The position numbers and the translations under genes were made by a program. This document shows positions 1,370 through 64,000 of a DNA stretch of 64,000 nt, one piece after another (the first letter of the stretch is position 1; each line of letters begins with the position of its first letter). Below the pieces are notes generated by a model, which was given only the letters and a program-made list of their open reading frames with translations, was not told the origin of the DNA and did not search any database. The stretch is from Escherichia phage vB-Eco-KMB43, in sequence record OR525698.1. One strand, 5' to 3'.

Positions 1370-2854
1370 ATGCAAGATATTAAAATTCACTTTCTGAACT
1401 ATTCCCATGTTCAAATTGAATGTAGCGATTCAATTTTATTAGAAATGCGAGATTATTTTAGTTTTGAAGTCGAGGGAGCGCGGTTTCAAAAAAGATTTAA
1501 GTATGGTGGATGGGATGGGCGTATTCGTCTTTTAGACTACAACGGAAAGTTGCCTATCGGCCTAACTAAAACCGTGGGAATCTTCGCTAAAAATATGGGC
1601 TATAGCGTATGGGTAGATCCTCGCTTATTCGAAAAAGAACAAGTTACAGAAGAAGAAATTACAAAATGGTGTAATGACTTAGAATTATATTCCGGTGCTA
1701 ACAGGATCACCCCGCACTGGTATCAATCAAAGGCTGTCTTTGAAGGTATCCATCATAAACGCCGTATGTTAGTTTTGCCTACGTCCGCTGGTAAATCTGC
1801 GATTGCTTGTATGTTGTCTCGCTGGTACTTAGAGAACTACGAAGGGAAAGTGCTGATCATCGTTCCTACCACGTCGCTAGTGCTGCAAATGCGTGATGAC
1901 TTTGTTGATTATCGCCAGTTTCCTTATGAAGCAATTCATACTATCATGAGCGGTACTAGTAAACACGTAGGTGATCGCCTGATCGTTGTTAGTACGTGGC
2001 AATCAGCATGTAAACAGCCTCGTGAGTGGTTCCAACAATTCGGGATGGTTATTGTTGACGAATGTCACAAAGCCACTGCTAAAAACCTGCTAAACATCGT
2101 TACTGATATGGATCATTGCCAATTTAAGATCGGTATGACTGGTTCCCCTCGTGACGGGAAAGCTAACATGATGCAGTATGTCGGGCTTTTCGGTGATATT
2201 TCTAAGATCGTGAGTATTGACCGCCTGATGGAAGAAGGGCAGGTGACAAAACTGAAAATTAACTGTCTTTTCCTTCGTTATACCGATGAGGAATGTAGCG
2301 CGGTTAAGGGTAGAGAATATGCGGAAGAGATCAAGTATATTACGTCTAACCCACGACGAAATAAGTTTGCTTGTAATTTGGCGCTAAAACTCGCTAAGAA
2401 GGGCGAAAACGTATTCCTTATGTTCCGCAATACTAAGCACGGAAAACTTATGTATGACGCGTTACAGAAGGTACACGACAAGGTTTATTATATTGACGGT
2501 GGAGTTAAGACAGAAGAACGTGATGAATTTAAGAAATTAGCGGAAGGGGAAACCGGGATCATTTGCGTTGCATCCTATGGTGTGTTCTCTACTGGTGTTT
2601 CAATTAAGAATTTGCACCATGTTATTTTCGGTCATCCAGTGAAGGAATCAACTATCGTTCGTCAGAGTATCGGTCGTGCATTGCGTAAACATGGTTCTAA
2701 GGATATTGCAACGGTCTGGGATCTTATAGATCATCTGGCGGTGAAGACAAAGAGCAAGAATGCTAAGAAACAGTTTAGTCACCTTAATTATGCTCTTAAA
2801 CACGCGCTTTTGAGGATACAGCTTTACAATACCGATAAATTTGAGTATGCTTAA
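1370..2854 (+). CDS. uvsW: UvsW RNA-DNA/DNA helicase (SF2), C-terminus altered by 55 bp tandem duplication
   Basis: Strong similarity to T4 UvsW (MQDIKIHF..., Walker A LPTSAGKS, DECH box); late promoter TATAAATA upstream; stop codon created at duplication junction. Confidence 0.9.
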   Translation: MQDIKIHFLNYSHVQIECSDSILLEMRDYFSFEVEGARFQKRFKYGGWDGRIRLLDYNGKLPIGLTKTVGIFAKNMGYSVWVDPRLFEKEQVTEEEITKWCNDLELYSGANRITPHWYQSKAVFEGIHHKRRMLVLPTSAGKSAIACMLSRWYLENYEGKVLIIVPTTSLVLQMRDDFVDYRQFPYEAIHTIMSGTSKHVGDRLIVVSTWQSACKQPREWFQQFGMVIVDECHKATAKNLLNIVTDMDHCQFKIGMTGSPRDGKANMMQYVGLFGDISKIVSIDRLMEEGQVTKLKINCLFLRYTDEECSAVKGREYAEEIKYITSNPRRNKFACNLALKLAKKGENVFLMFRNTKHGKLMYDALQKVHDKVYYIDGGVKTEERDEFKKLAEGETGIICVASYGVFSTGVSIKNLHHVIFGHPVKESTIVRQSIGRALRKHGSKDIATVWDLIDHLAVKTKSKNAKKQFSHLNYALKHALLRIQLYNTDKFEYA

Positions 2855-2904
2855 ACACGCGCTTTTGAGGATACAGCTTTACAATACCGATAAATTTGAG
2901 TATG
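2795..2904 (+). repeat. perfect 55 bp direct tandem duplication (2 copies) at uvsW 3' end
   Basis: 2795-2849 identical to 2850-2904; junction creates GCT TAA stop. Confidence 0.95.
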
Positions 2905-6876: not shown

Positions 6877-8582
6877 TGACAGAAACTAAACCTATGTTAA
6901 AATTTGTTGTTCCTGTAAAAAAATTAGAGATAAACGGGAAACATATCAAGATCCCAAAAATGGGGATTAAGCAACATCGATTATTAAAAGATGTTCGTAG
7001 CTGTGATGAAACATTAAAGATTCTTCTTGATTCAATCTGTCCTGGGTTAAACGCTGCCGAGTCTGAATTGGTTATGCTTAACCTTTGTGCGTATGAAGAA
7101 TTGCAAAAACTCAATAATTTCTCTTCTCAGATGAATGAGAAATTACGTGGTTTTGGTGTTATGATGGAACGTAGATTTGGTGTTGTCAGTAAAATGGCTA
7201 GCGGTATTGGTGCGATTGAAGAAGCACTGAAAAAACCGGAACAACCGCAAACAATGCCATCACCTCAGCCAGTTTTGCCTACTGTACCGGAACAGCCTAA
7301 TAATGACAACTATCAAGGTCTTCCAAAGAAAAAACCAGATGTTGAGGAACGGAAGAAAAAGAACGCCGCAGATAAGCGCAATGCGGATTCTATGGAAAAT
7401 CTTCTTAAAGTTGTTCGTGGAGGATTTAAAGAAACCATAGGTATCTCTAATAAGGTCTTAGGGATGTTATTTAAGATCACCTTGACCGCTATGGCAGAAG
7501 CCGCAAAATGGGGCGCTATTTTGATGGGTATTGTTTTTGCCATTGATACCCTTATGATTCATTTCAGATATTGGAGTGATTTATTCGAAACAAAATTTGA
7601 TGAATTTATGGATAAAGCCGGAGAATGGGCTGGACCCATTAGTGATATTCTAACAACTATTCGTCAAGTTCGAGATTATTGGTCTAAAGGTGAATATGGA
7701 GAATTAATTAAATCTCTTGTTATGGGTATTGGTGATGCATTCTATAAAACCTTTATCCAACTTGATCGAATTATCACTACTGGTATTGCTAAAATTCTTC
7801 GCATGATCCCTGGTATGGGTGATTATGCCGATAAGTTAGAATATGGTGCTTTAAAATCTGCTGTCGCTCAAGGTTATACGCCAAATGAAAGAGAACTCGA
7901 ATTAATGGATAAGGTCGAGTCTGAACACGAAGAGGACAAATACGGGGAGCGTACTGGTTGGACCGGAAAAGCCCGTGATATTGGTGAGGCTATCGGTGAC
8001 TCCATTAAAGATAAAGTTAACGAGGGTCTTGTTAGTCTGGGTTGGAGAGATCAAAAGGATGTTGACGCAGAGAAGCGACAAGAAGAATTAAAGCGCGGAG
8101 AATATGAGTCTGTTTCTGCTGAACAACGATCTGCTAGTCGTAAACTTAGAATTAAAAGTGAGGGCGCGATCAACAATATTAATGAAGTTATGGAGAATTT
8201 GAGCGGTGACTATGACAAAGAAAGAATGGGAGAGTTGAAAAAGGATATTGATGTTTACCGTGAGCAAGTTCAAGATCCTACATTAGTTGAAAGTGATCGT
8301 TCTCAGTTAGAGCGTCTTATTGAAAAATTTGATGAGATGTATGCTGATAAAACTAAGGGTGTTGTGCAAACACAGCCGGTTCCTGCAACTGAAACGGAAA
8401 CAGCAAAACAAGCGGAACGTACTGAACAAATGCAGAAACAAGCTGCAATCCAGAAACAAACGACAAATCAGACCTCAAACGTAAATAATACACAAATTGT
8501 AACAAACAATAGAACTATTAAACAGGGTGCACCAACAACTAGAATTGATGCCCCCGGTACAATTAATATGGGGAACTTTTAA
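6876..8582 (+). CDS. 29: baseplate hub / tail tube length determinant, gp29-like (no separate gp28 ORF seen)
   Basis: 568 aa ORF with hydrophobic segment and coiled-coil-like regions at gene 29 position; start overlaps gp27 stop (TAATG). Confidence 0.6.
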   Translation: MTETKPMLKFVVPVKKLEINGKHIKIPKMGIKQHRLLKDVRSCDETLKILLDSICPGLNAAESELVMLNLCAYEELQKLNNFSSQMNEKLRGFGVMMERRFGVVSKMASGIGAIEEALKKPEQPQTMPSPQPVLPTVPEQPNNDNYQGLPKKKPDVEERKKKNAADKRNADSMENLLKVVRGGFKETIGISNKVLGMLFKITLTAMAEAAKWGAILMGIVFAIDTLMIHFRYWSDLFETKFDEFMDKAGEWAGPISDILTTIRQVRDYWSKGEYGELIKSLVMGIGDAFYKTFIQLDRIITTGIAKILRMIPGMGDYADKLEYGALKSAVAQGYTPNERELELMDKVESEHEEDKYGERTGWTGKARDIGEAIGDSIKDKVNEGLVSLGWRDQKDVDAEKRQEELKRGEYESVSAEQRSASRKLRIKSEGAINNINEVMENLSGDYDKERMGELKKDIDVYREQVQDPTLVESDRSQLERLIEKFDEMYADKTKGVVQTQPVPATETETAKQAERTEQMQKQAAIQKQTTNQTSNVNNTQIVTNNRTIKQGAPTTRIDAPGTINMGNF

Positions 8583-9640
8583 TGAAAATTAGTGTTATCA
8601 ATGATGCCGTTGATAGCTTTAAAGCGGGGGTTAAAACCTCCGCTGGTTTTACCTCAAAAAATAAAGGGAAAACATTAACCGCTCAATTCCCCGCTGAACG
8701 TGCTAGCGGTAATGATGCTAGCGGTTATTATATCAACGACTTATATAATAATGGTCTGTTATTCACTGCATACGATTACACCTCTCGTACTACTGGATCG
8801 CTGCGTGATTTCAGGAAAAAGAAAAATGTTGCTAGCGGTTTTGGTGGTAGCGTTAATATCGCTGGTTTTGATTTAAATTTGGGTGGGAGAAATGCTGCAT
8901 TTGACCGAGAGGCAATTGCTAATATTCTTCTTCCTCGTAGTCAATCTGACGTTGACGCTGCCAGCCATAAGTTTAATGATGTTGGTGAATCTGTTATTTC
9001 TCGCGGCGGTGGTACTTTAGGCGGTGCTCTTTCTAATATGGCATCTACTGCCGTTTTTGGTGGTATCGAAAGTATTACTGGTGGATACCTTGCCGATCAC
9101 GGTGAACAGATTTATAATACTGCGCGAAGCATGTATGCGGGTGCTGATGCACGAACTAAAAACTACGTATGGCATCTAACCCCACGTAGTATTGAAGACC
9201 TTCGCAATATTCTGATCATATACGAAACGTTTTTAGAATTGTCTTATGGTTCTAGTGGCATTTCCAGCACCGCAAAAGAATTAAAAGCGGAAGTTGATGC
9301 GTGGTATAAAAATACACTATTGAGAAAATCCACCCCAGAGGAAGCGAAGAGAAATGATACTCTGTTTGAAGGGATCACCGATTTTCTATCAAACGTAATT
9401 ACTGTATCTAACCCGACAATATGGATGATCTCTAACTTCGGCAAGCGTACATCGTTTGAAGGGCGTAGCGATGCATTTGGTCCCGCTCAGATCTCAAGTG
9501 TACGTCTGGACAAGTCGCCTGATGGTAAGTTTAATGGCCTTGCTATTTCTCCTAACTTGCCGAGTACCTTTGTTCTGGAAGTATCATTTAGAGAGATCTT
9601 GACACTTTCCCGTGGTACTATATTTGGGAGTGCGGCATAA
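8582..9640 (+). CDS. 48: baseplate tail tube cap gp48
   Basis: 352 aa ORF at conserved position, start overlaps upstream stop. Confidence 0.8.
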   Translation: MKISVINDAVDSFKAGVKTSAGFTSKNKGKTLTAQFPAERASGNDASGYYINDLYNNGLLFTAYDYTSRTTGSLRDFRKKKNVASGFGGSVNIAGFDLNLGGRNAAFDREAIANILLPRSQSDVDAASHKFNDVGESVISRGGGTLGGALSNMASTAVFGGIESITGGYLADHGEQIYNTARSMYAGADARTKNYVWHLTPRSIEDLRNILIIYETFLELSYGSSGISSTAKELKAEVDAWYKNTLLRKSTPEEAKRNDTLFEGITDFLSNVITVSNPTIWMISNFGKRTSFEGRSDAFGPAQISSVRLDKSPDGKFNGLAISPNLPSTFVLEVSFREILTLSRGTIFGSAA

Positions 9641-10089
9641 TGTTTGATTTAAATGACTTTAACGAACAAGCCGCTAACCTTGACTTTCAGCGATCGAACT
9701 TATTCAGCGTGGCATTTGCCACCACTCCAAGTAATAAGACACAAGCGATCCTAGAAAGTATGGGTGGTGCGGTATATGATATTATACCAAATGCATTAAA
9801 TGACTATTTCGGGATTACTCGTGGTGATTATACTGACGCATTAACAAATCTTGCTGTGCAGGGTGTTAGGCGTGCTGTTGATTCATCTGGTGTCAAAAAG
9901 TATCTTTTAGGTGCAATGTCATCCCGCGTAGTTCAATCTCTTCTGGGGCAATTTGATGTTGGTACATATGCGCTTGACTGGTTCAATCTGGCATATAAGA
10001 CAAGCGGTCTTCTGGTGTATGCTGTTAAGGTTCCAGAAAACAGATTGAATTATGAAATGGACCGTAACCACAATGCGCCAAACATTCGA
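9640..10089 (+). CDS. 54: baseplate tail tube initiator gp54, N-terminal segment (residues 1-150)
   Basis: Collinear with T4 gp54 up to ...PENRLNYEMDRNHNAPNIR; reading frame then diverges and stops at 10170. Confidence 0.8.
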
Positions 10090-10466
10090 TTAATGGTAAG
10101 TGTCTGGAAGAAAAAGATGGTCTTAAGCTGTCTGATGTGTATATTTGTACAGAGACTGAATTTACTTTAAATGGTAAAGTCTTTAAATTTAAAAATCCAA
10201 TGTATACTTCTGACCCCATTATCGATGACGCTGATTTCTTGAGTCATCATTATCACGATCCTAGTGTAGACTTCCATGATTTCCCAGCTTTTATTATGGA
10301 TTGGGCTACAGGATTAAGAAAAACTATTGCACTGGATACACCGGAAGGTACTATCTATGGTGGAATTAACATATTGGATCGCCTATCATGAATGACGCAT
10401 TAACATCATTTCGCGGGATGCGCAAGGAAGCGGAAGAAAACCCGATTGATAAACTTAACAAATTAG
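10090..10466 (+). other. intervening sequence interrupting gene 54 (candidate group I intron or other excised element)
   Basis: Removing 377 nt (or 380 nt, 10087-10466) joins NIR to INGRDFDPLVLSFRMD in frame, matching the contiguous T4 gp54 sequence; 3' end is G. Confidence 0.6.
10137..10391 (+). CDS. open reading frame inside the gene 54 intervening sequence (~100 codons open, function unknown)
   Basis: Frame open from 10083 to TGA at 10391 in AT-rich DNA; weak RBS; same frame as gp54 C-terminal segment. Confidence 0.3.
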   Translation: MYICTETEFTLNGKVFKFKNPMYTSDPIIDDADFLSHHYHDPSVDFHDFPAFIMDWATGLRKTIALDTPEGTIYGGINILDRLS

Positions 10467-10949
10467 ATAAACGGACGTGATTTCGATCCGCTTGTATTGA
10501 GCTTTAGAATGGACTCTAGCGCATCAAACTATCGAGCAATGCAGGATTGGGTTAACTCAGTAGAAGACCCCGTTACAGGGCTTCGTGCGCTTCCTGTTGA
10601 CGTTGAAGCAGATATTCAGGTTAACTTACATAACCGAATGGGAGTTCCTCACACGATCATGATGTTTAATGGTTGTGTTCCTGTTGGTGTGAGTGCACCG
10701 GAATTAACCTATGAAAATAACAACGAAATAACAACATTCGATGTTACTTTCGCATATCGTTCTATGCAAACTGGTGCTGTAGGAGAGCAAGCCGCGCGAG
10801 AATGGATTGAGGATAAGGCAATAAACGCAATAACAAACACTTTCGGCAATAATTTACTTGATAGTGGGTTATCTGCTGCTGGTAATGCTTTATCGCGTCT
10901 AAATGGCGTTGGTGGGCGTGTGGTGAATACTGTCACTAACTGGTTCTGA
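10467..10949 (+). CDS. 54: baseplate tail tube initiator gp54, C-terminal segment
   Basis: INGRDFDPLVLSFRMDSSASNYRAMQDWVNSV... collinear with T4 gp54 C-terminal half; no good own start or RBS. Confidence 0.8.
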   Translation: MNGRDFDPLVLSFRMDSSASNYRAMQDWVNSVEDPVTGLRALPVDVEADIQVNLHNRMGVPHTIMMFNGCVPVGVSAPELTYENNNEITTFDVTFAYRSMQTGAVGEQAAREWIEDKAINAITNTFGNNLLDSGLSAAGNALSRLNGVGGRVVNTVTNWF

Positions 10950-19007: not shown

Positions 19008-19012
19008 GTATA

Positions 19013-19300: not shown

Positions 19301-19346
19301 AATTTGATTCTCCTAGTTAGAAAGTGTATCTCGTTTCGATGGGTGT

Positions 19347-19707: not shown

Positions 19708-19721
19708 AGTATAATCCTCAA

Positions 19722-20045: not shown

Positions 20046-20047
20046 AA

Positions 20048-20257: not shown

Positions 20258-20522
20258 AATCGTTAACTACCTTATCAGCTTCTTTTATTGTTTTTACATC
20301 AACTGCGATAACCCGTAAAGGTTCGTCGTGGTTCCACCAATGATCGTGAATATCAGCTTGTGATTTATCACCAAAGGAATCACGAATATCATTTTTACAT
20401 TTATAGCTAATGTGACCGTCATAGTCAACATAAAGGTAATTATCGAAAATCGGCGTTTTTAAGATCATGCCGAAAAATCTTTCTTTGTGTGTCTTATCCA
20501 GTGTTGCAGTAATTCGCATCAT
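20244..20522 (-). CDS. HxHW-motif small protein family member
   Basis: HDHWW ... IAVDVKTIKEADK. Confidence 0.5.
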   Translation of the reverse strand: MMRITATLDKTHKERFFGMILKTPIFDNYLYVDYDGHISYKCKNDIRDSFGDKSQADIHDHWWNHDEPLRVIAVDVKTIKEADKVVNDYEQI

Positions 20523-20534
20523 AATATATTCCTC

Positions 20535-20714
20535 TTAGAAAGGGATGGTCATTTCTTGAGCTTGTACATTCTCGTTAGGATTAAACTTCATCCAACCGAT
20601 ATTGTCTACCAGCATATGCACATTTTTATCATATCCTACGTGAGTAGTCAATACTAAATGTGCTTTACCTTCAACGATGATTTCCATGTACTTCTGAACT
20701 TCGATAGCTTTCAT
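20535..20714 (-). CDS. hypothetical small protein (59 aa)
   Basis: ATG 20714 behind PeSL and GGAGAATCAA leader. Confidence 0.4.
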   Translation of the reverse strand: MKAIEVQKYMEIIVEGKAHLVLTTHVGYDKNVHMLVDNIGWMKFNPNENVQAQEMTIPF

Positions 20715-20747
20715 TTTTGATTCTCCGTTTGTTGTCTTGATGGGAGT

Positions 20748-20776
20748 ATATTACTACTCCCTTTAATCATTGTCAA
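20748..20776 (-). promoter_or_regulatory. PeSL early promoter (stem GGGAGTA/TACTCCC)
   Basis: TTGACA plus palindrome GGGAGTATATTACTACTCCC. Confidence 0.5.
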
Positions 20777-20779
20777 CTA

Positions 20780-20947
20780 TTATTTGTTAATTTCCGGTGC
20801 GTTGCTCGGATAGTAACCTTCTTTAACACCCAGATATTTTGCGACCATTCCGGTGATCTTCTGTGCTACTACAATGTCAAATTTCAGGTAGTCTTCACCG
20901 TGGTTTGCTACAATGTATGCTTCGCATTCTGCTTTAGTCTGGAACAT
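20780..20947 (-). CDS. hypothetical small protein (55 aa), paralog of 17159-17326
   Basis: MFQTKAECEAY...NAPEINK; PeSL upstream. Confidence 0.45.
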   Translation of the reverse strand: MFQTKAECEAYIVANHGEDYLKFDIVVAQKITGMVAKYLGVKEGYYPSNAPEINK

Positions 20948-20981
20948 TTTTGATTCTCCTATATCTCGTTGGTATGTGTGT

Positions 20982-21010
20982 AGTATAGGGGATCACCGAT
21001 CCCCTGTCAA
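20982..21010 (-). promoter_or_regulatory. PeSL early promoter (TTGACA-GGGGATCGGTGATCCCC-TATACT)
   Basis: Same stem-loop spacer as the 14982 copy. Confidence 0.6.
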
Positions 21011-21017
21011 CAACTTT

Positions 21018-21326
21018 TTATTCTTCATCTTCATCTTTATCTTGATATGCGTACGTCATAAATTTGTCTGCTACTTTGTCCGCGTTTTCAGGTTCTACGT
21101 CTGACGCTAGGACAACAGCTAGTTCTGTTTTGTCGTTTCCATCATACCAATGATTATGAGTGTCGTTTTCTTCGATATAAAACGAATCATTTGGAGTTGT
21201 GCGACAATATACGTCTAAATTCCCATCGATATAAAAGATCCAATCCGAATACAAAATGATTGTTTTAGCAAGATTTTTATTGCCTTCAACGAAAGGTTCG
21301 GCTACAAACAAATTAGTATGTTCCAT
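21018..21326 (-). CDS. HxHW-motif small protein family member
   Basis: THNHW ... VVLASDVEPENADK; start ATG 21326 with GAGGAAAAA RBS. Confidence 0.5.
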   Translation of the reverse strand: MEHTNLFVAEPFVEGNKNLAKTIILYSDWIFYIDGNLDVYCRTTPNDSFYIEENDTHNHWYDGNDKTELAVVLASDVEPENADKVADKFMTYAYQDKDEDEE

Positions 21327-21343
21327 AGTATTTTTCCTCAAAA

Positions 21344-21535
21344 TTATACAGCTTCGTAAACTTCCCAATGTCCAACACCAGCACGCTTAACGAAAAGGTT
21401 TTCTTTTATGTTATTCATAAACGTCTGGATGGATTTAATTCGTTTGGAAGGTTTCCAGTCTTCGTTGGTATTGCGTCGATACATCATAACATTACCAGAC
21501 CGCTTATATTCAGCAACCATTTTAAGACCACACAT
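21344..21535 (-). CDS. hypothetical protein (63 aa)
   Basis: ORF track; promoter-like motif upstream. Confidence 0.4.
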   Translation of the reverse strand: MCGLKMVAEYKRSGNVMMYRRNTNEDWKPSKRIKSIQTFMNNIKENLFVKRAGVGHWEVYEAV

Positions 21536-21580
21536 AATATTATCCTCAATTTGTGGGAGAGTATTACCCTCCCGATTATT

Positions 21581-21612
21581 GTTATACTACATTACGCAAA
21601 ATGGCGTGTCAA
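21581..21612 (-). promoter_or_regulatory. early promoter-like element with nearby GC palindrome
   Basis: TTGACA present; -10 weak; palindrome GGGAG...CTCCC displaced. Confidence 0.3.
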
Positions 21613-21912
21613 TGCTTCTTTTGCTGTTCCGCTAAGATTCTCTATCTCTCCTGGCATAACATCAACCGCCAGAACTTCTACAACATCCTCTGATCCTAAC
21701 CAGTGAGTATGACCTTTGTAGAACTTGATAATCAGACTACCTTCCTCATCCCATTTAACGCTATCGCTAGCCCACCACACATCACCGTCGATAAAGTTGA
21801 TGTAAAGCACACTACGCCACATTGAATTAATTACTTTCAATACTGCGCCTTTCATATCTTCCACGGTGTGGTCTTCCATTTTGAAGACCTCGCCTACCTG
21901 AACTTTTGCCAT
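21592..21912 (-). CDS. HxHW-motif small protein family member
   Basis: GHTHW ... LAVDVMPGE; RBS GAGAGGTGA. Confidence 0.5.
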   Translation of the reverse strand: MAKVQVGEVFKMEDHTVEDMKGAVLKVINSMWRSVLYINFIDGDVWWASDSVKWDEEGSLIIKFYKGHTHWLGSEDVVEVLAVDVMPGEIENLSGTAKEALTRHFA

Positions 21913-21929
21913 TTAGTCACCTCTCTTTA

Positions 21930-22109
21930 TTACATAACAATTACGCCAGCCGTTGAAAGTTGATGTTTCAACTGAGCATTTTCTGCTACTGTCAAATCAA
22001 TGATTTCTTGTGACGCTGCAATCATATAGCCATTGGTGATATTGTTTTGCATCAGTTCAATGGTTTCTTCGTTGTAGCGGATTTTAGCGATGATTTCGTT
22101 GAAGTTCAT
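21930..22109 (-). CDS. hypothetical small protein (59 aa)
   Basis: ATG 22109 behind PeSL; MNFNEIIAKIRY... Confidence 0.4.
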   Translation of the reverse strand: MNFNEIIAKIRYNEETIELMQNNITNGYMIAASQEIIDLTVAENAQLKHQLSTAGVIVM

Positions 22110-22143
22110 AATTGATTCTCCTAGTTCGTTTCGGTATGTGTGT

Positions 22144-22173
22144 ATTATAGGGGAGTTTAACCTCCCCTGTCAA
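22144..22173 (-). promoter_or_regulatory. PeSL early promoter (TTGACA-GGGGAGGTTAAACTCCCC-TATAAT)
   Basis: Consensus hexamers with stem-loop spacer. Confidence 0.6.
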
Positions 22174-22181
22174 CAACTTTT

Positions 22182-22493
22182 TTAAAGTTTTTCCATGATA
22201 ACGGTCATAATTACATCTTCTGCGCGAGCGGTCAGATTATCAGCGTCAGCATGTGGGCGGTTGGTTGTTACAGAGATAACACCGTTGCGCACTGGTTTGA
22301 TATTGATATCAAGATGATCCGCGAAACGTTCGCCAGTTACAGAATGAATTTTGGTGTTAAATTCTTTTGCCAGTGCCTTGCGAACTTCACGAATCAGGAT
22401 AGCGTTTTTCAGTTGGTTCTCCGCGCTCATGGTCTTCTGAGTGTTCATGGTTCCGTCGAAGTCAATCATTGGCAGCGTTACGATGTATTTCAT
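22182..22493 (-). CDS. hypothetical protein (103 aa), AKEFN-motif pair with 19013-19300
   Basis: Shared motif REVRKALAKEFNTK; PeSL upstream. Confidence 0.5.
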   Translation of the reverse strand: MKYIVTLPMIDFDGTMNTQKTMSAENQLKNAILIREVRKALAKEFNTKIHSVTGERFADHLDINIKPVRNGVISVTTNRPHADADNLTARAEDVIMTVIMEKL

Positions 22494-22537
22494 TTTTGAT
22501 TCTCCGTTTAAGAAAGTGTGTTTCGTTTTGATGTGTG

Positions 22538-22567
22538 TAGTATAGGGGATACGTGATCCCCTGTCAA
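22538..22567 (-). promoter_or_regulatory. PeSL early promoter (TTGACA-GGGGATCACGTATCCCC-TATACT)
   Basis: Consensus -35 with stem-loop spacer. Confidence 0.6.
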
Positions 22568-22580
22568 CAACTTTTTTGAA

Positions 22581-22925
22581 TTATTTTTTCATGAGCTTAA
22601 TGGCTTCTTCCATAGCCAGCACATTTCGATAGTTAGGGTATCGTGTTAGATCGTCATACATTCGCTTAAGGGTGGAAACTTCCTCAAACTCTGGGTTTTC
22701 TAGATACAGTTGAACAAATTGTTTCTCTACCATCTCGGCTTTTAGCTTGTCTGCTTGTTCCTGTTCATATGATTTCGTTGGACCCAACACCAACAAAATG
22801 ATAAAGGTGATCAACGGGCTAATGATCAATGATAGGATAACATAACCAATAACGCTACGGTTTAAACGGCTTGCGTACATGCCTACAAGGAAAACAAAAA
22901 GGATATAGATAAACAGAAAGAACAT
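22581..22925 (-). CDS. small membrane protein (two predicted TM segments)
   Basis: Hydrophobic N-terminal half FFLFIYILFVFLVGMY... IISPLITFIILLVLG. Confidence 0.5.
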   Translation of the reverse strand: MFFLFIYILFVFLVGMYASRLNRSVIGYVILSLIISPLITFIILLVLGPTKSYEQEQADKLKAEMVEKQFVQLYLENPEFEEVSTLKRMYDDLTRYPNYRNVLAMEEAIKLMKK

Positions 22926-30313: not shown

Positions 30314-30712
30314 TTAACTTTCCAGAATATCGCGAGCTTCGTTACGCTCCTTGATGATTTTCAGGACAAATTCCAGTTTTTCTTTGTTCAGTGTTCCGTT
30401 TTCCATTGCTTCTTTGACGGTAAACACTCCGCCACCTTGCCCGTATACAGTGACAGTGATTTCACCTAACATCGTGGTATGAAAACCGCCAATTTTCGGT
30501 GATTCGAAAGAAACAATTACCTCGCGAACAGTATTACCGTCGTTGATTTCTGAGAGGGTAATGTCGTTTTTGTAGGCGGTTGCTTTAACCATACGGATCA
30601 ACATAGTCTGATCTGGTGAGATGGTCATTTTGTCCATTGCATGTTGCAATGCAGCGTAACCGAAAACTTTAACGAAGTCCAGAACATCTTTGCGAGTTTG
30701 AAATTTAATCAT
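30314..30712 (-). CDS. hypothetical protein (132 aa)
   Basis: ORF behind PeSL with hairpin terminator downstream. Confidence 0.5.
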   Translation of the reverse strand: MIKFQTRKDVLDFVKVFGYAALQHAMDKMTISPDQTMLIRMVKATAYKNDITLSEINDGNTVREVIVSFESPKIGGFHTTMLGEITVTVYGQGGGVFTVKEAMENGTLNKEKLEFVLKIIKERNEARDILES

Positions 30713-30745
30713 CTTGATACTCCTTAGTTGTTTTGGTATGGGAGT

Positions 30746-30774
30746 ATCTTACTACTCCCGTGATATGCTGTCAA
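30746..30774 (-). promoter_or_regulatory. PeSL early promoter (stem GGGAGTAG/ATACTCCC)
   Basis: TTGACA, palindrome overlapping -10 TAAGAT. Confidence 0.5.
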
Positions 30775-30782
30775 CTGCTTTT

Positions 30783-30932
30783 TTATGCAACCGCAAACAT
30801 CAACATTTGAACATTCTTGGCTGTCTGGCTTTCAAAGTTCTGACATTCTTTGATAATGTCCTCTACTTTCTCGCCGGAGATCTCCGCGTAAGTTTCGATT
30901 GCCATTTTCAGTACCGCGTCAAAGTTGTTCAT
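30783..30932 (-). CDS. hypothetical small protein (49 aa)
   Basis: ATG 30932 behind PeSL and GGAGAATCAA leader. Confidence 0.35.
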   Translation of the reverse strand: MNNFDAVLKMAIETYAEISGEKVEDIIKECQNFESQTAKNVQMLMFAVA

Positions 30933-30970
30933 TTGATTCTCCTTAAAGTTTATTTCGTTTCGATGGGGGT

Positions 30971-30999
30971 ATATTAATACCCCCGTTATTCAGTGTCAA
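30971..30999 (-). promoter_or_regulatory. PeSL early promoter (stem GGGGGTAT/ATACCCCC)
   Basis: TTGACA-17-TAATAT with palindrome. Confidence 0.55.
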
Positions 31000-31218
31000 C
31001 TACTTTTTAATGACAATTTCGAATTTTGCTACCTTGCGTCCTCGTTTATTGAAAGCAACCCACGGACGGTTTTCAATATAGAACAATTCTTCGCCAATAA
31101 TGAATACTGGCTGATTGTAAAGGCGACCCATCAGGTCACGCTGGCGAATGGTAGTAGATTCGTATACTTCGCCTACTACAAAGTGTTTGCTGATAGAGTC
31201 GGTGCAAGTAAATTTCAT
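31000..31218 (-). CDS. hypothetical protein (72 aa), VAKFEI-motif pair with 59495-59701
   Basis: C-terminal KVAKFEIVIKK shared with a paralog; PeSL upstream. Confidence 0.5.
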   Translation of the reverse strand: MKFTCTDSISKHFVVGEVYESTTIRQRDLMGRLYNQPVFIIGEELFYIENRPWVAFNKRGRKVAKFEIVIKK

Positions 31219-31251
31219 TTTGATTCTCCTTTGTTTCGTTTCGATGGGAGT

Positions 31252-31280
31252 ATCTTACTACCCCCGTTATTCAGTGTCAA
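31252..31280 (-). promoter_or_regulatory. PeSL early promoter
   Basis: TTGACA-17-TAAGAT with imperfect palindrome. Confidence 0.5.
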
Positions 31281-31287
31281 CTACTTT

Positions 31288-31506
31288 TTACTTGTTGTAT
31301 TCATTCCACCATTGGGTGAGCTTATCAATTATTTTTGTGTTTCTATCCAACTTATCCCACCGTTTTCGAGGGTTTATCAACCGTAATAGGTAAGGTGTAC
31401 TTGTTAAGTGAACTCGGTCAATATAGTGATTGATGTACTGCTTTTCGATTCTAAGTTTCATCTTTTTACGATGAAAATATGCAATGACTTGTTCTTCTGT
31501 TTCCAT
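31288..31506 (-). CDS. hypothetical protein (72 aa)
   Basis: ORF behind PeSL. Confidence 0.5.
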   Translation of the reverse strand: METEEQVIAYFHRKKMKLRIEKQYINHYIDRVHLTSTPYLLRLINPRKRWDKLDRNTKIIDKLTQWWNEYNK

Positions 31507-33766: not shown

Positions 33767-33797
33767 AATAAAATCCTCACTTGTTTTTGATGGTTGT

Positions 33798-33826
33798 ATT
33801 ATAGCGGGGATTTCTCCCCGCGTCAA
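33798..33826 (-). promoter_or_regulatory. PeSL early promoter (TTGACG-CGGGGAGAAATCCCCGC-TATAAT), downstream flank of MTase cassette
   Basis: Core identical to the copy at 34696-34724. Confidence 0.65.
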
Positions 33827-34674
33827 CAGCTATTTGACAATCCATCGCAAGCATCAATGTAAGCACCTACAAAACTTTCTATAAAAAGTGCTCCGACTTG
33901 AGGAACTATCGCATTGCCATAACCGCGCAATCGTCCCATTGTTGAGGATACCCCATCAGCCAACAAGGGAATCGTGGGTTCAACAATTCGTTTTTTCCCG
34001 TCTCTGCATAGATACTCTGTTCCACTGTCCCAAAACCGTAATACATCTTCACTTGTTCTGATAAATTTCCCGGCGCTAGTGATTTCCTCCCCGTTGCAAG
34101 TCTCGCTTCCATTCTCCGTTGCATTGCTTCCGGCGATCTTGCTGATATATTCGTTACAGTAGGTGTTTGCCAACTCGTTAATAGCCCCGAAGAAAAGTCT
34201 GTCCCGCTTGTGCGGCGCACCGACGATATCACATGATAATACCGCAGCCCCGACACTGTAACCTTCTCTTTCCAATTCCTCGTGAAGATCATCCAACCAC
34301 CCCGTTTCGATAGCTTTTGCAACCTGTTCCCCAAAGAGCATTGGAGGTTTGCACGCTGACACGAGTTTAAGAAATGTCGGTGCAAGGTGTCTTTCGTCGA
34401 ACTTTCCTTTTTGCTTTCCGGCTCTTGAAAATGGTTGACATGGTGGCGATCCGGTCCATAGCCTTGTTGTTTCTGGTACTCCAGCGAGTTGCAATGCTCT
34501 TGACCACCCCCCAATCCCCGCGAAGAAGTGACATTGTGTAAATCCTTCCAGATCTCTAGGGGTGACTTCTGTAATTGATCTTTCATCGACATACCCATAA
34601 GGAATTAATTTGTTTGCTATAAGTTCACGTAACCAGTTAGCCGCGCCTTTATCCCACTCATTGTAATAATTCAT
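33823..34674 (-). CDS. DNA (cytosine-5)-methyltransferase, compact (283 aa)
   Basis: Motif I FFAGIGG, motif IV GSPPCQPFSRAG, C-terminal GNAIVPQV; GC-rich versus flanks; identical PeSL copies on both sides. Confidence 0.8.
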   Translation of the reverse strand: MNYYNEWDKGAANWLRELIANKLIPYGYVDERSITEVTPRDLEGFTQCHFFAGIGGWSRALQLAGVPETTRLWTGSPPCQPFSRAGKQKGKFDERHLAPTFLKLVSACKPPMLFGEQVAKAIETGWLDDLHEELEREGYSVGAAVLSCDIVGAPHKRDRLFFGAINELANTYCNEYISKIAGSNATENGSETCNGEEITSAGKFIRTSEDVLRFWDSGTEYLCRDGKKRIVEPTIPLLADGVSSTMGRLRGYGNAIVPQVGALFIESFVGAYIDACDGLSNSC

Positions 34675-34695
34675 TCTTACAATTCACCTCACATT

Positions 34696-34724
34696 ATTAT
34701 AGCGGGGATTTCTCCCCGCGTCAA
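34696..34724 (-). promoter_or_regulatory. PeSL early promoter (TTGACG-CGGGGAGAAATCCCCGC-TATAAT), upstream flank of MTase cassette
   Basis: Core identical to the copy at 33798-33826; overlaps nrdA stop. Confidence 0.65.
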
Positions 34725-34732
34725 CAGTTATT

Positions 34733-36976
34733 TTACAGCTTACAGGATGAACACTCGCTAGCGTCTTCCGTACCATCTGCACCGTCGCGAACGTTCGCAT
34801 AATACAGGGTTTTCAGACCGTAATATTGAGCAAACAACATATCATCTAACACATCAGCAATATCGACTTTACCAGTCTTATAAGTGCTTGGATCGTATGA
34901 TGTATTGGAACTAATCGCCTGATCCACAAACTTCTGCATGATCGCTGCCAGTGTCAGATAAGGCTTGTTACCTTTCTTGATCAGTGTCCAAAGCAGGTCA
35001 ATAACATCAGCATTATTCTCTACGTTCGGAATAACCTGATTAAATTGCCCTTCTTTCGATCCTTTAACCGATACAATCCCGCGAGGCGGTTCAATACCAT
35101 TTGTGCTGTTAGACACCTGAGAAGATGACTCACAAGGCATCAGCGCCGAAAGCGTACTGTTACGAATGCCATATTTTTTCAGGTCTTCGCGCAGTTCTTC
35201 CCAATCCATCTCATACACCGGATCAACCAGTTCATCTACTGTCTTTTTGTACCAGTCGATAGGAAGTTCACCGCGACCGTAGCGTGTTTCGTGCATCAGT
35301 TCGCAAGCACCCTTCTCTTTTGCGAGTTGCACACTAGCCTTAATCAGAGCATATTGCAAGCGTTCAAACGTTTTATGCGTAAACTCGTTAGCGTCTTCAT
35401 ATGTGAAGAAATTATCTGCTAGATATGATGCAAAGTTAGTAACACCAACGCCCAGAGAGCGACGTTTTTTGGCTGTCAGAGCTTGTTCTACAGGATAATC
35501 CTGATAATCTAACAGGTTGTCAAGTGCACGCACCATAACCATAGCAATGCGTTCTACTTCTTTCATGTTTTCGATATCGAAATTACCTAAAACATATGCT
35601 GCCAAAGTGCATAGGCTGATCTCTGAATCATCACGACCCATCGGTTTAGTAGGCAGTGCAATTTCACAACACAGGTTAGATTGTTTAATCGGTGCTACAT
35701 TACGAATAAACGCCCCGTGATTGTTCATGTTGTCTGTGAACGTTGGGTAGATTCGACCAGTGTTAAAACGTTCAATTGCCACCGCTAAAAACAGGTCTTC
35801 GGCTTTAACACGAGTTTTACGAACACTCGGATCTTTTTCCAGTTTTTCGTAAAGCTGGCGGAAACCTTCCTCATCTCGGAAGTACAGATCCCACAACAAG
35901 CCACCTGCAACATCTGGACTAAACAGAGTAATGTAATCCCGTTTAAGGAATCGCTCTACCATCAGGTTATTAATCTGTACGCCGTAGTCAAGATGGCGAA
36001 TGCGGTTATCTTCCACGCCCTTATTGTTCTTTAACACAATCAGACTTTCAAACTCTAAATGCCACATTGGGTAATAGAGTGTCGCTGCCCCGCCACGAAT
36101 ACCGCCTTGTGAGCATGACTTAACGGCAGTCTGAAAATGTTTCCAGAATGGGATAACGCCAGTATGACGAACTTCACCATGCCCGATCTTAGATCCTTCC
36201 GCGCGAATCATACCAGCATTGATACCGATACCAGCACGCTTGCTAATATACTTGATGATTGCATTTGCTGTTTCGTTGATGCCCTGCAATGAATCATCAG
36301 ATTCGATCACCACACACGAACTAAATTGGCGTGTTGGGGTACGCACACCTGCCATAATCGGAGTAGGCAGAGAGATTTGCTTATTCGCAACAGCATTATA
36401 AAAATCAATCACATGTTCAAGTCGATTTTCTGTCTCTTCTTGATGCAAGCACATACCGATCAGCATATACGCAAATTGCGGTGTTTCGATGATTTTCTTA
36501 GTGCTGCGATCCTGAACAAGATATTTCTCTTTTAACTGCATCGCACCAGCATAGGTCATTTTAAAATCAAGTTTATGGTCGATGAATTTCTCCAGATATT
36601 CCACTTCTTCACGGGAATATTTTTGCAGAATTTCGCGATCATATTTTCCGGTTGCAATATTACGCTCAATATGGCTATAAAAATCAATAGGTTGGAATTG
36701 ACCGTATACTGATTTACGAAGCGCGAACATTGCAAGGTTACTTGCTACATATTGATAATCAGGTGTTTCTACAGTAATGTTATCTGCGGCGACCTTAATC
36801 AATACTTTCTGGATATCATTGGTAGACATACCTTCTGTCAGAAGTGGTTCAACCATATCAAACAATTCATATGGATCAACGTTATGACCTTCGGCTGCCG
36901 CTTCCAGAATTTTCATTACTTTTTCTTTTTCAAACGGAACAGTCAGACCGGAAGACTTAACAACATTTTTAATCAT
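34733..36976 (-). CDS. nrdA: ribonucleotide reductase class Ia alpha subunit
   Basis: 747 aa, ATP-cone N-terminus, active-site NLCCEI, C-terminal CSSCKL. Confidence 0.9.
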   Translation of the reverse strand: MIKNVVKSSGLTVPFEKEKVMKILEAAAEGHNVDPYELFDMVEPLLTEGMSTNDIQKVLIKVAADNITVETPDYQYVASNLAMFALRKSVYGQFQPIDFYSHIERNIATGKYDREILQKYSREEVEYLEKFIDHKLDFKMTYAGAMQLKEKYLVQDRSTKKIIETPQFAYMLIGMCLHQEETENRLEHVIDFYNAVANKQISLPTPIMAGVRTPTRQFSSCVVIESDDSLQGINETANAIIKYISKRAGIGINAGMIRAEGSKIGHGEVRHTGVIPFWKHFQTAVKSCSQGGIRGGAATLYYPMWHLEFESLIVLKNNKGVEDNRIRHLDYGVQINNLMVERFLKRDYITLFSPDVAGGLLWDLYFRDEEGFRQLYEKLEKDPSVRKTRVKAEDLFLAVAIERFNTGRIYPTFTDNMNNHGAFIRNVAPIKQSNLCCEIALPTKPMGRDDSEISLCTLAAYVLGNFDIENMKEVERIAMVMVRALDNLLDYQDYPVEQALTAKKRRSLGVGVTNFASYLADNFFTYEDANEFTHKTFERLQYALIKASVQLAKEKGACELMHETRYGRGELPIDWYKKTVDELVDPVYEMDWEELREDLKKYGIRNSTLSALMPCESSSQVSNSTNGIEPPRGIVSVKGSKEGQFNQVIPNVENNADVIDLLWTLIKKGNKPYLTLAAIMQKFVDQAISSNTSYDPSTYKTGKVDIADVLDDMLFAQYYGLKTLYYANVRDGADGTEDASECSSCKL

Positions 36977-39660: not shown

Positions 39661-40684
39661 TTACAGATTCAGAAGTGAGTCCAGGTCATCCAGATCAGAA
39701 GCGGAGGAAGTACCGCCACCCAGATCCAGCGATGCCATCAGGTCATCAGCGGAAGAATCTAACGCCGTGCTAGCTGCGTTAATACCAACTACAGTGCTAG
39801 CTGCGGTAATACCAGAATCGAATGCATTCATCTGTGCGTCAAAATCGTCAAGCTGGCTGTTAATCGCTGCCGCAGCACTGGAAGCCGCAGCGCCAGCTAC
39901 CATAGAAACGCCCATAGTTTTCTTAAATTTGGTTTCCAGTTCATCGAACGGTTTAAACTGGCTAGGCGCTACAATCTCACCCAGATCAACCATGTTTTCC
40001 ATCAGATATTTCTGATATGCTTCGTCTTCAATTTTCGGAAGCTGTGATTGCTGCATGAAACGAGAATCATCATAGTTCTGGTGTTTATCAACCTTCTTAG
40101 CTTTCAGGAGGAAGTTAGCACCGGAGAACACACAAGTTACATCTACCGGAACTTCGCCCATGTCGGTATTCACGTTCACCATTGCAACGATCTTATCATA
40201 AATTTTCTGACCGAAGCGGAATTTGAATACCTTACCTTCATTTTCTGGTGCTTGAGGATCTTTCAGTACCAGAATATTTGCGTAGTAAGACGCTTTACGC
40301 TTAATCAGTTGCCATTCGGTTTTATCGGTATTGTACAGGTCTTTTTCGTTAATATATTTGCACACAGGGCAAGAATCAAAATCACCGTGGGTGCTGGAGC
40401 AGTTTTCCCAATACCATTTGCCATTAACTTTGAAGGAATGGTTTACCAGTTTCACAATCGGCAGACCGTCTTCTGTCTTAGACGGCAGGAAGCGAATCAG
40501 GGCTTCACCGTTACCTGCTGCATCAGTCTTAATCTTCCACTCTTTCGGATCTTCTTTGGAGAAACCGTTGCCACCTTTCAGTGTTAATCTTCCACTCTTT
40601 CGGATCTTCTTTGGAGAAACCGTTGCCACCTTTCAGTGAGGCCAGTTGAGCTTGCAGTTTGGAAGAATCTTGGCGTTTAAACAT
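39661..40684 (-). CDS. 32: single-stranded DNA-binding protein gp32, reading frame disrupted by 55 bp tandem duplication
   Basis: ATG at 40684 ([23 protein letters not shown]...) matches T4 gp32 N-terminus; frameshift inside the duplication gives a stop; remainder of gp32 is in the ORF-track frame 39661-40629. Confidence 0.85.
40529..40638 (+). repeat. perfect 55 bp direct tandem duplication (2 copies) inside gene 32 5' region
   Basis: 40529-40583 identical to 40584-40638; 55 is not a multiple of 3, so gene 32 is frameshifted. Confidence 0.95.
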
Positions 40685-57364: not shown

Positions 57365-58123
57365 TTACTTGCAAACGTATTGATCTACATCAATTGCGCC
57401 ACCGAATGTAGGATGACGTTTTTCGAATCGAATAGTTCCGTCGTTTGGTTCGAAAACGGAGTATTCATATAGATCTTTCTTGCCAACATTCTTATAAAAC
57501 CCGCCTTTAGTCATAAGGGTTTCTTGTACGTTTGCTTTGTGTACGTTGTATTCATCAATGTATACAAAATCAACCATCTTCCCATTTTTAATGGTTACTT
57601 TAAGATCTCCTGGTTGATTTCCATATTTGGCATACAGTGGCGCTTCTTTAATTTTTGTGGAAATTCCATCTTTCATACTCCACTCATAACGAACGGTGCA
57701 TTGATAGGTAAAAGTTTCGACCTTCGGTTCTTCTACCACTTTTGCTTCCTGTTTCGGTTGTTCTTCTTCAACCTTCGCAGAAGTCTCTGAATCGCTTTCT
57801 GACGCGGTTTCTTCTTTAGGTAATACATTCATCAAGTTTTGGATTTGAGCGTTGTATACAGCCTCCAGTGGCTGAATCTGCCCGATATTGATCATTGTAT
57901 CACGAACAGTTTTATTCCAGTTACGTTGCTCTTGTTTCAGAGACGGATCAATCTTAACAGCCTTAACATACACCTCATGAAGTTTAGAGTCCAGTGCGGA
58001 GATAGACTCATTAGCACAAATAAACTTCTCTGATTTGGTAGTAGCTTTAGCGCAATCAAAGGACGCAGCGTTAGCACCGAAAGCAGTAGCAGAAAGAACG
58101 ATAGCAGCGATAATGTTTTTCAT
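57365..58123 (-). CDS. secreted protein with DUF1311/LprI-like N-terminal domain
   Basis: Signal peptide MKNIIAAIVLSATAFGANA; pattern C...C...LD..L..VY...QR.W typical of DUF1311; PeSL upstream. Confidence 0.5.
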   Translation of the reverse strand: MKNIIAAIVLSATAFGANAASFDCAKATTKSEKFICANESISALDSKLHEVYVKAVKIDPSLKQEQRNWNKTVRDTMINIGQIQPLEAVYNAQIQNLMNVLPKEETASESDSETSAKVEEEQPKQEAKVVEEPKVETFTYQCTVRYEWSMKDGISTKIKEAPLYAKYGNQPGDLKVTIKNGKMVDFVYIDEYNVHKANVQETLMTKGGFYKNVGKKDLYEYSVFEPNDGTIRFEKRHPTFGGAIDVDQYVCK

Positions 58124-58157
58124 AATATATTCCTCAGTGTTTTGTCTTGATGGGAGT

Positions 58158-58187
58158 ATCTTACTACTCCCTTAATCCTGTGTCAAC
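58158..58187 (-). promoter_or_regulatory. PeSL early promoter (stem GGGAGTAG/ATACTCCC)
   Basis: TTGACA with palindrome, upstream of DUF1311 gene. Confidence 0.5.
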
Positions 58188-58198
58188 AACTATTTTTT

Positions 58199-58411
58199 TT
58201 AATTTTTACCCGCTCGTGCATTAATACGCATTTTCTGCATAGCCATGATCTGGCTTACTACTTCTTCTTTACGTTCTTGCGTGATAACGTGACCAGATTC
58301 CGCAAACTCTCCCGCAACTTCTTCTACGATCTCGCGAACTTGAGAACGTCCAAAGATGCGGTTTCCTTCGTAGCTCATAAATTCAGTCACTACTTGCTCA
58401 ATAGATTTCAT
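58199..58411 (-). CDS. hypothetical protein (70 aa)
   Basis: ORF behind PeSL. Confidence 0.45.
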   Translation of the reverse strand: MKSIEQVVTEFMSYEGNRIFGRSQVREIVEEVAGEFAESGHVITQERKEEVVSQIMAMQKMRINARAGKN

Positions 58412-58440
58412 GTGATTCTCCTTTCGTTTGGTATGGGAGT

Positions 58441-58469
58441 ATATTACTACTCCCTTATCTTTACGTCAA
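58441..58469 (-). promoter_or_regulatory. PeSL early promoter
   Basis: TTGACG-17-TAATAT with palindrome GGGAGTATATTACTACTCCC. Confidence 0.5.
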
Positions 58470-58476
58470 CTAGTTT

Positions 58477-58719
58477 TTAGAAATTTTTCGCTTCTTCTTC
58501 GGTCATCATAACCGCGCATTCGTGCATAACTTTGAAAACCGGATCAATCATGTCGAATGCTTCGCGGGACAGTTTACGAGAAGCGATTTTGATTGCTTCA
58601 TCGTCTTCGACTACAGGAACAAAAACAGTTTTCAGTTCATCGAGCACGGCAGCTTCTTTTTCATTCAGGAAGATCCCAGCGTCGTACAGTGCAACTTCGA
58701 TAACATTCACTTTAACCAT
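58477..58719 (-). CDS. hypothetical acidic protein (80 aa)
   Basis: ATG 58719 behind PeSL at 58754-58782. Confidence 0.45.
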   Translation of the reverse strand: MVKVNVIEVALYDAGIFLNEKEAAVLDELKTVFVPVVEDDEAIKIASRKLSREAFDMIDPVFKVMHECAVMMTEEEAKNF

Positions 58720-58753
58720 TTTTATTTCCTCCAGTTCGTTTCGGTATGGGAGT

Positions 58754-58782
58754 ATAATACTACCGATGACCTTTGGCGTCAA
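58754..58782 (-). promoter_or_regulatory. early promoter (TTGACG-17-TATTAT)
   Basis: Hexamers upstream of 58477-58719 ORF. Confidence 0.5.
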
Positions 58783-58984
58783 CTAGTTTTTTGTTATTTT
58801 CGTGAAAATTTTTCGTCGCCTCAAGTGCTTTTCGCTGGGCTTCTTGTTGTGCTTGCTGGCGTGCTGCCTCTTGCGATGCCATAACGGAAGCATTTGCGGC
58901 AGTTACAGCCGCGACCATCGCTGCGGTGTTAGCATTTACAGTACATGCGCTCGCCAACAAAGCAATCGCAATCATTTTCTTCAT
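58760..58984 (-). CDS. small secreted/lipoprotein-like protein (74 aa)
   Basis: Signal peptide MKKMIAIALLASAC, A/Q-rich body. Confidence 0.45.
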   Translation of the reverse strand: MKKMIAIALLASACTVNANTAAMVAAVTAANASVMASQEAARQQAQQEAQRKALEATKNFHENNKKLVDAKGHR

Positions 58985-59151
58985 AGTTTCCTCTTTAGGT
59001 TATCTTCGACCTTCACCCATTCCGCGTATTCTTGCGCGGCTACTTTCGGATTTAGTCCGTCTTCATACATTGCATCAAGTAATTCTTTGTCGGTGGGCTT
59101 ATACCCTAGATAAGCCTCCACCTGATTTTTCCAAATTTTATACCAGTTCAT
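58981..59151 (-). CDS. hypothetical protein
   Basis: ORF; likely start ATG 59151 with GGTGA RBS. Confidence 0.4.
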   Translation of the reverse strand: MNWYKIWKNQVEAYLGYKPTDKELLDAMYEDGLNPKVAAQEYAEWVKVEDNLKRKL

Positions 59152-59155
59152 ATTA

Positions 59156-59428
59156 TCACCAATCAAGAGCGCGTGTCTCTGCGTCTTCCCATGCTTGATC
59201 CATAACAGCCTTGAAAACATATTCTAGAGTATCATCTTTAGAGAATCCGAAGACCTTAGACGGGATATCTTCAATTGCTACTCCAGCAACTTCTGCATTA
59301 CGCGCTTGGCAATAATGCAACTCTAAGTTATCGAGATAGCGACCGCCTAATTTCTCCATATCATCCCAGCATTTCCAGTAACCTACTTTATTTGCAATTG
59401 CTAACACTTTGCTGTTTTCGTTGCTCAT
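59156..59428 (-). CDS. hypothetical protein (90 aa)
   Basis: ATG 59428 behind PeSL at 59460-59488. Confidence 0.45.
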   Translation of the reverse strand: MSNENSKVLAIANKVGYWKCWDDMEKLGGRYLDNLELHYCQARNAEVAGVAIEDIPSKVFGFSKDDTLEYVFKAVMDQAWEDAETRALDW

Positions 59429-59459
59429 CTTTGATTCTCCTTTTGTTTGGAATGGGAGT

Positions 59460-59488
59460 ATATTACTACTCCCATTATTCAGTGTCAA
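59460..59488 (-). promoter_or_regulatory. PeSL early promoter
   Basis: TTGACA-17-TAATAT with palindrome GGGAGTA...TACTCCC. Confidence 0.5.
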
Positions 59489-59494
59489 TAGATT

Positions 59495-59701
59495 TTATTC
59501 GATTATTTCAAATTTTGCTACCGGATCACCGTTTCGTTTGGTTGCAGTAAGTTGTTGTTTGTCAAAGTAAAACCAAATATAGTCACCATGAACTACATCA
59601 AATGTGTTTCCGCTATTGTCCGTGAATACATCAACATCATAATCACACCCGACACCAAAGCTATAATTGATGTGATCGGTTTCAATGCAACGTACTTTCA
59701 T
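59495..59701 (-). CDS. hypothetical protein (68 aa), VAKFEI-motif pair with 31000-31218
   Basis: C-terminal PVAKFEIIE; PeSL upstream. Confidence 0.5.
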   Translation of the reverse strand: MKVRCIETDHINYSFGVGCDYDVDVFTDNSGNTFDVVHGDYIWFYFDKQQLTATKRNGDPVAKFEIIE

Positions 59702-63857: not shown

Positions 63858-63989
63858 TTATTTTGCTTCTACAACCTTGCGGATTGTGCGGTCTGATACA
63901 TTATAGATTCGTGCCAGTTCGCCTTTAGTCAAGCCGCGAGCGTATTGTTTACGGATGGTTTCTTTCTGGATAGCGGTCAGTTTAGTCAT
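63858..63989 (-). CDS. small HTH protein (43 aa)
   Basis: MTKLTAIQKETIRKQYARGLTKGELARIYNVSDRTIRK; resembles the rIIB N-terminal HTH segment. Confidence 0.35.
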   Translation of the reverse strand: MTKLTAIQKETIRKQYARGLTKGELARIYNVSDRTIRKVVEAK

Positions 63990-64000
63990 AGTATCACCTC

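Follow-up and report, generated by a model that had tools for sequence, protein, structure and literature searches.

The window analysed here, that is, the whole stretch of 64,000 nucleotides, represents a Krischvirus (RB49-like, Straboviridae) genome whose identity to 58 phage records is 93-99% and varies between regions. Its gene 32 is interrupted by a perfect 55 bp tandem duplication which breaks the reading frame of an essential protein, and this raises the question of whether the duplication belongs to the phage or to the way in which its sequence was put together. As set out below, the duplication is most likely an assembly error and no real biological feature. The features on which this assessment is based are collected in Table 1.

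Table 1. Features discussed in the text, in positions of the window.
Feature	Position	Strand	Remarks
55-mer copy nearest the gene 32 start	40584..40638	-	native gp32 frame, about codons 16-34
Second, redundant 55-mer copy	40529..40583	-	one base out of frame; 55-base gap in the alignment of relatives
Truncated gene 32 frame as written	40529..40684	-	51 codons: 33 native and 18 frameshifted
Rest of gene 32 (core and C-terminal domain)	39661..40629	-	first possible start GTG at 40629
Base beside the gene 32 55-mer	40639	+	A in the window and LF73P4; C in RB49, Makalu001, FL04 and Delraymugoa
Second perfect 55 bp x 2 duplication, 3' end of uvsW	2795..2904	+	2795-2849 identical to 2850-2904
Base beside the uvsW 55-mer	2905	+	T in the window; C in Makalu001, whose 55-mer is identical
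Block swap in the baseplate genes	7092..10471	+	C (7092-10089) followed by B (10090-10471), the reverse of the reference order
Window end	63921..64000	+	last base equals the last base of the RB49 record NC_005066.1 (164018)

The two copies in gene 32 were compared by Tandem Repeats Finder, by a repeat search and directly, and all three comparisons show them to be identical at 55 of 55 positions, in keeping with the perfect duplication at 40529-40638 that the first-pass annotation had reported. In the direct comparison the identity extended by 0 bases beyond either boundary, and there is no microhomology. The figure of 2.1 copies with 98% identity given by Tandem Repeats Finder reflects only a chance match of five out of six flanking bases (gACTGA versus cACTGA). 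A perfect 55+55 repeat has a random expectation of about 64000 x 4^-55 in 64 kb, and a chance origin is therefore excluded. At the joint 40583/40584 the sequence reads ...GAAGATTAA on the left side and CACTGAAAGG... on the right side; the junction of copy 1 to copy 2 is also given as ...GATTAA followed by CACTGAAAGG....

According to the annotation of RB49 and other relatives, the duplication falls in gene 32, downstream of gene 59. Translation of the minus strand from the ATG at 40684 yields 33 native gp32 residues (MFKRQDSS...KEWKI), followed by 18 out-of-frame residues and the stop codon TAA at 40531-40529. The frameshift and the early stop that had been claimed for this reading frame are thus present, although the native part comprises 33 residues and not about 36 codons, and the remainder of gp32 was correctly placed in the frame of the GTG at 40629. 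No Pfam match was found for the 51-codon truncated product. When one copy of the 55-mer is deleted, the frame of the ATG joins the 39661-40629 frame in a clean ORF of 322 amino acids, which matches PF08804 with 174.6 bits (cut-off 26.8, E = 3.6e-51) and whose residues 1-298 align with T4 gp32 (8gme_A, E = 6.6e-107), so that the earlier statement that removal of one copy restores a T4-like gp32 also holds. As in T4 gp32 (PF08804; 8gme, 1gpc), the de-duplicated ORF contains an N-terminal cooperativity segment, an acidic C-terminus and a zinc-containing core, in which the CSSTHGD...CPVC motif is conserved in the alignment. In contrast to T4 gp32, the frameshift in the sequence as written cuts residues 1-33 off from the core. 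Replication requires gp32 as an essential protein, and contacts from its N-terminus to the core of the neighbouring molecule form the cooperative filaments (PMC10484735, PMC12893549). Since these two parts are no longer joined in the sequence as written, the biology of the protein speaks against the duplication being real.

The duplication in gene 32 has a counterpart elsewhere in the window. In an exhaustive scan of the 64 kb for perfect tandem duplications with periods of 8-1000, only two with a period above 8 were found besides three trivial 8-mers, and both are exactly 55 bp long, confirming the equality in length that had been pointed out before. The second one is located at the 3' end of uvsW, where the joint 2849/2850 reads ...GAGTATG followed by CTTAAACACG...; here, too, the identity extends by 0 bases at either boundary and no microhomology is present. 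UvsW as written ends at the TAA at 2852-2854, at the start of copy 2, so that a single A takes the place of its last seven residues (VTKTIEI), and uvsW.1 has moved by 55 bp. The joints 2849/2850 and 40583/40584 bound a piece of 37,734 bp.

The comparison with RB49-like genomes that the first-pass annotation had proposed gave a uniform result. Each of the 58 related Krischvirus records has a single copy at the gene 32 site, as does each of the 55 matching records (55/55) at the uvsW site; a query of 601 bp was used for each site, and the two pieces in which the relatives align to it span 546 or 544 bp, which corresponds to one copy. When RB49, LF73P4, Ec_Makalu_001, FL04 and Delraymugoa are included in multiple alignments, a clean gap of 55 columns is accordingly seen at both sites. 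The gene 32 site is also single-copy in LF73P4 and in three Logan assemblies (ERR12949693, DRR827185, SRR32678524), all of which encode an identical gp59 and span the site. Two of these four assemblies cover the whole gene, and in both a gp32 of 322 amino acids is called. At the uvsW site, the Logan contig L021 is single-copy. The contigs of other strains with an identical gp59 or Alt have 97.9-99.6% identity to the window in the baseplate region and 82.8-98.7% around gene 32, and were used only as independent controls for single-copy state and correct order. An exact search for a 37-mer across the gene 32 junction found no occurrence in IMG/VR, JGI metagenomes or GTDB genomes, and a search of complete E. 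coli genomes gave no match. Exact look-ups of the aberrant products, namely the 51-residue fragment, the GTG-started 322-aa ORF, the truncated UvsW and a gp28-gp29 fusion described below, found none of them on record; the same look-up found neither the gp34 nor the 932-aa tail-fibre proteins on record. The real phage most likely has one copy of the 55-mer and an intact, ordinary gp32 of 322 amino acids.

How a second copy could have entered the record is suggested by its length. Neighbouring contigs from a de Bruijn graph overlap by k bases. If the final k were 55, the overlap would comprise their terminal 55 bases, and pasting two of them, or both ends of one circular contig, together without trimming the shared 55-mer would result in a perfect 55 bp tandem duplication. 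Untrimmed pasting would have taken place at two joints, 2849/2850 and 40583/40584, most likely while a circularly permuted genome was being re-ordered to the start and end of RB49. The window and the RB49 record share their last base (Table 1), which indicates that the source genome was cut and joined anew so as to run collinearly with RB49, a cut-and-paste operation on the output of an assembler; the window is the final 64 kb of this re-opened genome. We therefore regard it as likely that the gene 32 duplication is an untrimmed 55-base contig overlap that remained from finishing, a reading in which we infer which assembler was used, with which k, and that contigs were pasted. The ORF-integrity scan revealed no real gene broken apart from those at the structural anomalies, which indicates that the quality of the record is good at the base level and that its defects are purely structural.

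Overlaps of this kind have been described. SPAdes contigs with overlaps of 55 bp are on record (PMC12697093; PMC5481147), and SPAdes contigs of a phage could be joined "based on 55 bp overlaps" (PMC12697093), while artefactual terminal repeats of length k, 127 bp in that case, are documented for SPAdes phage contigs (PMC9331655). The Phables paper contains no relevant statement on overlap handling. The duplications in the window resemble these k-mer overlap artefacts in that the copies are perfect, the length is a standard final k (55) and equal at every joint, the repeat is absent from relatives and the genome is circularly permuted and was re-opened. They differ in their position: whereas the documented cases are mostly terminal repeats or correctly trimmed overlaps, the overlaps here are internal and within genes, and the pieces would have been concatenated untrimmed.

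A contig ends at the k-mer where the assembly graph branches, and a variant is then expected directly beside the shared k-mer. The bases beside the 55-mers were compared in five relatives fixed beforehand (RB49, LF73P4, Makalu001, FL04 and Delraymugoa), a comparison that addresses variation between these phages. On the plus strand, the first base 3' of the 55-mer varies among the five relatives at both joints. RB49, FL04 and Delraymugoa share the gene 32 55-mer exactly and then diverge at 40639, while Makalu001 differs at one base within the 55-mer. The local fractions of variable sites within 500 bp are 0.060 and 0.037. By our own estimate, the joint chance of such adjacency to variable sites is about 0.01-0.03, and not the 0.002 that follows from wider local densities, because the uvsW 55-mer is located inside a dense variable patch. 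On this comparison of sequences, the variable bases at both joints are suggestive of the geometry of an assembly-graph fork. A simple SNP-bubble model was considered and rejected, since a plain bubble should leave another duplicated 55-mer immediately beyond each SNP. No such duplication is seen, which also counts against the overlap reading.

The first-pass annotation had left undecided whether the duplication is an artefact, a mutation or the mark of a non-viable genome. The artefact is favoured by the equal lengths that correspond to an assembler overlap, the lack of microhomology, the absence of the duplication elsewhere, the location of the joints at variable sites and the re-opening of the genome on RB49, while nothing favours a mutant or a non-viable genome.

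Two observations concern the surroundings of the joints. In an independent assembly of another sequencing run, built with k = 31, the Logan contig ERR3941077_14719 (L020) ends one base past 40639 (its end corresponds to 40638-40640 of the window), with the C allele, and thus at most 2 nt from the joint in the window; this may be a coincidence or a recurrent break in the graph. At the other joint, the nearest relative of the window switches within 2700-2905 from FL04/Delraymugoa-like, with 0 differences over 2700-2794, to LF73P4/Makalu001-like, and 14 of the 55 positions in the uvsW 55-mer differ from those in RB49, FL04 and Delraymugoa. This switch looks like the boundary of a natural recombination mosaic. 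A chimera of two co-occurring strains was considered for this joint and rejected, since both copies of the 55-mer carry the right-hand allele, which places the boundary inside the left contig, where it looks natural.

If the duplication were real, the phage would still need a source of gp32. We considered a ribosomal hop of 55 nt, a -1 frameshift in the second copy and re-initiation at the GTG at 40629. T4 gene 60, with its bypass of 50 nt, provides a precedent in this phage group, and in both genes a non-coding stretch of about 50 nt lies in an essential replication gene with matching codons on both sides; a tandem duplication provides identical take-off and landing codons, here 55 nt apart. 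The likeness is superficial, however, as the gene 32 site lacks the stop adjacent to the take-off codon, the stem-loop and the conservation. No stop directly follows any candidate take-off codon, the first one being 18 codons past the junction, and no slippery heptamer of the type X XXY YYZ occurs in the frame that is read. Compared with shuffled controls, the mRNA segment has less structure (z = +1.78), and it contains no stable hairpin. Upstream of the GTG at 40629 there is only an abutting GAAAG and no Shine-Dalgarno sequence at a proper distance, whereas GAAGGAA precedes the true ATG, and a product started at the GTG would be devoid of the N-terminal cooperativity domain. The coding gap is conserved in none of the 58 relatives. 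Frameshifting, bypass and re-initiation were rejected on these grounds, and we give such a rescue of gp32 next to no credence; that a viable phage carries the duplication and that its ribosomes hop to the identical codon 55 nt downstream, in a newly arisen bypass of the gene 60 type, is likewise extremely improbable.

A third structural anomaly was found in the baseplate genes, where two blocks have changed places. The reference order, as established from RB49, LF73P4, the Logan contig SRR22355966 and all 58 phage records, is A-B-g-C-D, with lengths of 386 for B, 158 for g and 3002 for C, while the window has A-C-B-D. This arrangement is unique to the window and goes along with the loss of segment g (158 nt) and of a further 5 nt. 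It splits gp28, gp29 (the tape measure) and gp54, and creates an in-frame gp28N-gp29C fusion ORF at 6876-8582. The microhomology at the three junctions is 0-1 nt, with 1 nt at two of them, and no 55 bp overlap was found there. The block swap is a further sign that the structure of the record is unreliable. Since it lacks a 55 bp overlap, it lies outside the mechanism proposed for the two duplications, which counts against that mechanism as a common cause and calls for a second kind of error or for a sequence altered in some other way. It keeps two possibilities open, namely that the sequence was altered otherwise or that it comes from a defective genome.

According to the first of these possibilities, the assembled sequence would have been edited in silico, with two 55 bp duplications and a block transposition introduced as simulated or deliberate structural variants. 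In that case, neither the phage nor an assembler would be the origin of any of the three anomalies. All three are unique to the window, and the junction and the aberrant products are in no public collection; a fixed length parameter would give two identical lengths, and the base-level sequence is otherwise clean. A block swap without k-mer overlap that loses 158 + 5 nt is, moreover, hard to obtain from a de Bruijn assembler. However, 55 is a specific value of assembler overlap, a random placement beside variable sites at both duplications would be unexpected (about 0.01-0.03), and the end of the record, collinear with RB49, points to an ordinary curated submission. We consider editing of this kind unlikely.

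The second possibility is a spontaneous tandem duplication in a defective or mutant genome that came to dominate the lysate, for example one maintained by complementation at high multiplicity of infection; such a genome would indeed have an inactive gene 32. T4-type phages produce duplications and deletions by illegitimate recombination, the baseplate rearrangement has the 1-nt microhomologies mentioned above, the duplication in uvsW costs the protein only seven C-terminal residues, and the three anomalies together could describe one defective genome. Like natural duplications formed by slipped-strand or illegitimate recombination, those in the window consist of a short segment repeated head to tail. 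They differ from them in that no microhomology is present at the endpoints, two sites have identical length, the effect in an essential gene would be lethal and none of the relatives has the duplication. It would be a remarkable coincidence if natural duplication had occurred twice, independently, with exactly equal lengths and without microhomology, and the duplications are also absent from the independent assemblies that cover the sites. A genome without functional gp32, gp28, gp29 and gp54 cannot propagate alone and is unexpected as the consensus of an isolate; by this reasoning the genome with the duplication would be incompatible with propagation. Taken together, we regard a defective genome as very unlikely and retain the untrimmed contig overlap as the most likely explanation for both 55 bp duplications.

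The biological importance of the duplication is accordingly small, as gene 32 of the phage is most likely normal. The practical value of the finding lies in data quality, since at least three errors in the structure of the record disrupt gp32, the C-terminus of UvsW, gp28, gp29 and gp54. Automated annotation would turn these genes into pseudogenes or report essential genes as "missing", and comparative studies or screens of therapeutic phages could be misled. A perfect tandem duplication that has the length of an assembler k and recurs within a record is a simple warning sign of untrimmed contig joints that applies generally.

Further differences in gene order and content were noted among the relatives. 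The record of Krischvirus LF73P4 (OZ035795.1), the closest relative, contains a large block, at about 56743-83313, that is inverted with respect to the window, RB49 and FL04; positions 22490-48851 of the window map to 83313-56743 of LF73P4 on the opposite strand. The LF73P4 record is unannotated (ENA), and the inverted block could be a misassembly or a real inversion of that record. One of its breakpoints is at a dispersed intergenic repeat near 22490-22577 of the window. The breakpoints of the inversion were also compared with the joints of the window and do not coincide with them. A cassette of about 855 bp (33840-34694), flanked by two 43-nt repeats with 95% identity (33797-33839 and 34695-34737), is present in the window and in LF73P4, while RB49 and FL04 have no cassette and a single copy of the repeat, which looks like a natural modular gain or loss between the repeat copies. 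Finally, families of dispersed intergenic repeats of 40-80 nt occur at 14700-22600, 30700-31300, 33797-34737 and 58100-59500. They consist of GTCAAC...TTTTT, a short GC-rich palindrome and TATTAT-like boxes, precede small early genes of the minus strand, and presumably resemble the promoter/stem-loop cassettes of RB49-type phages.
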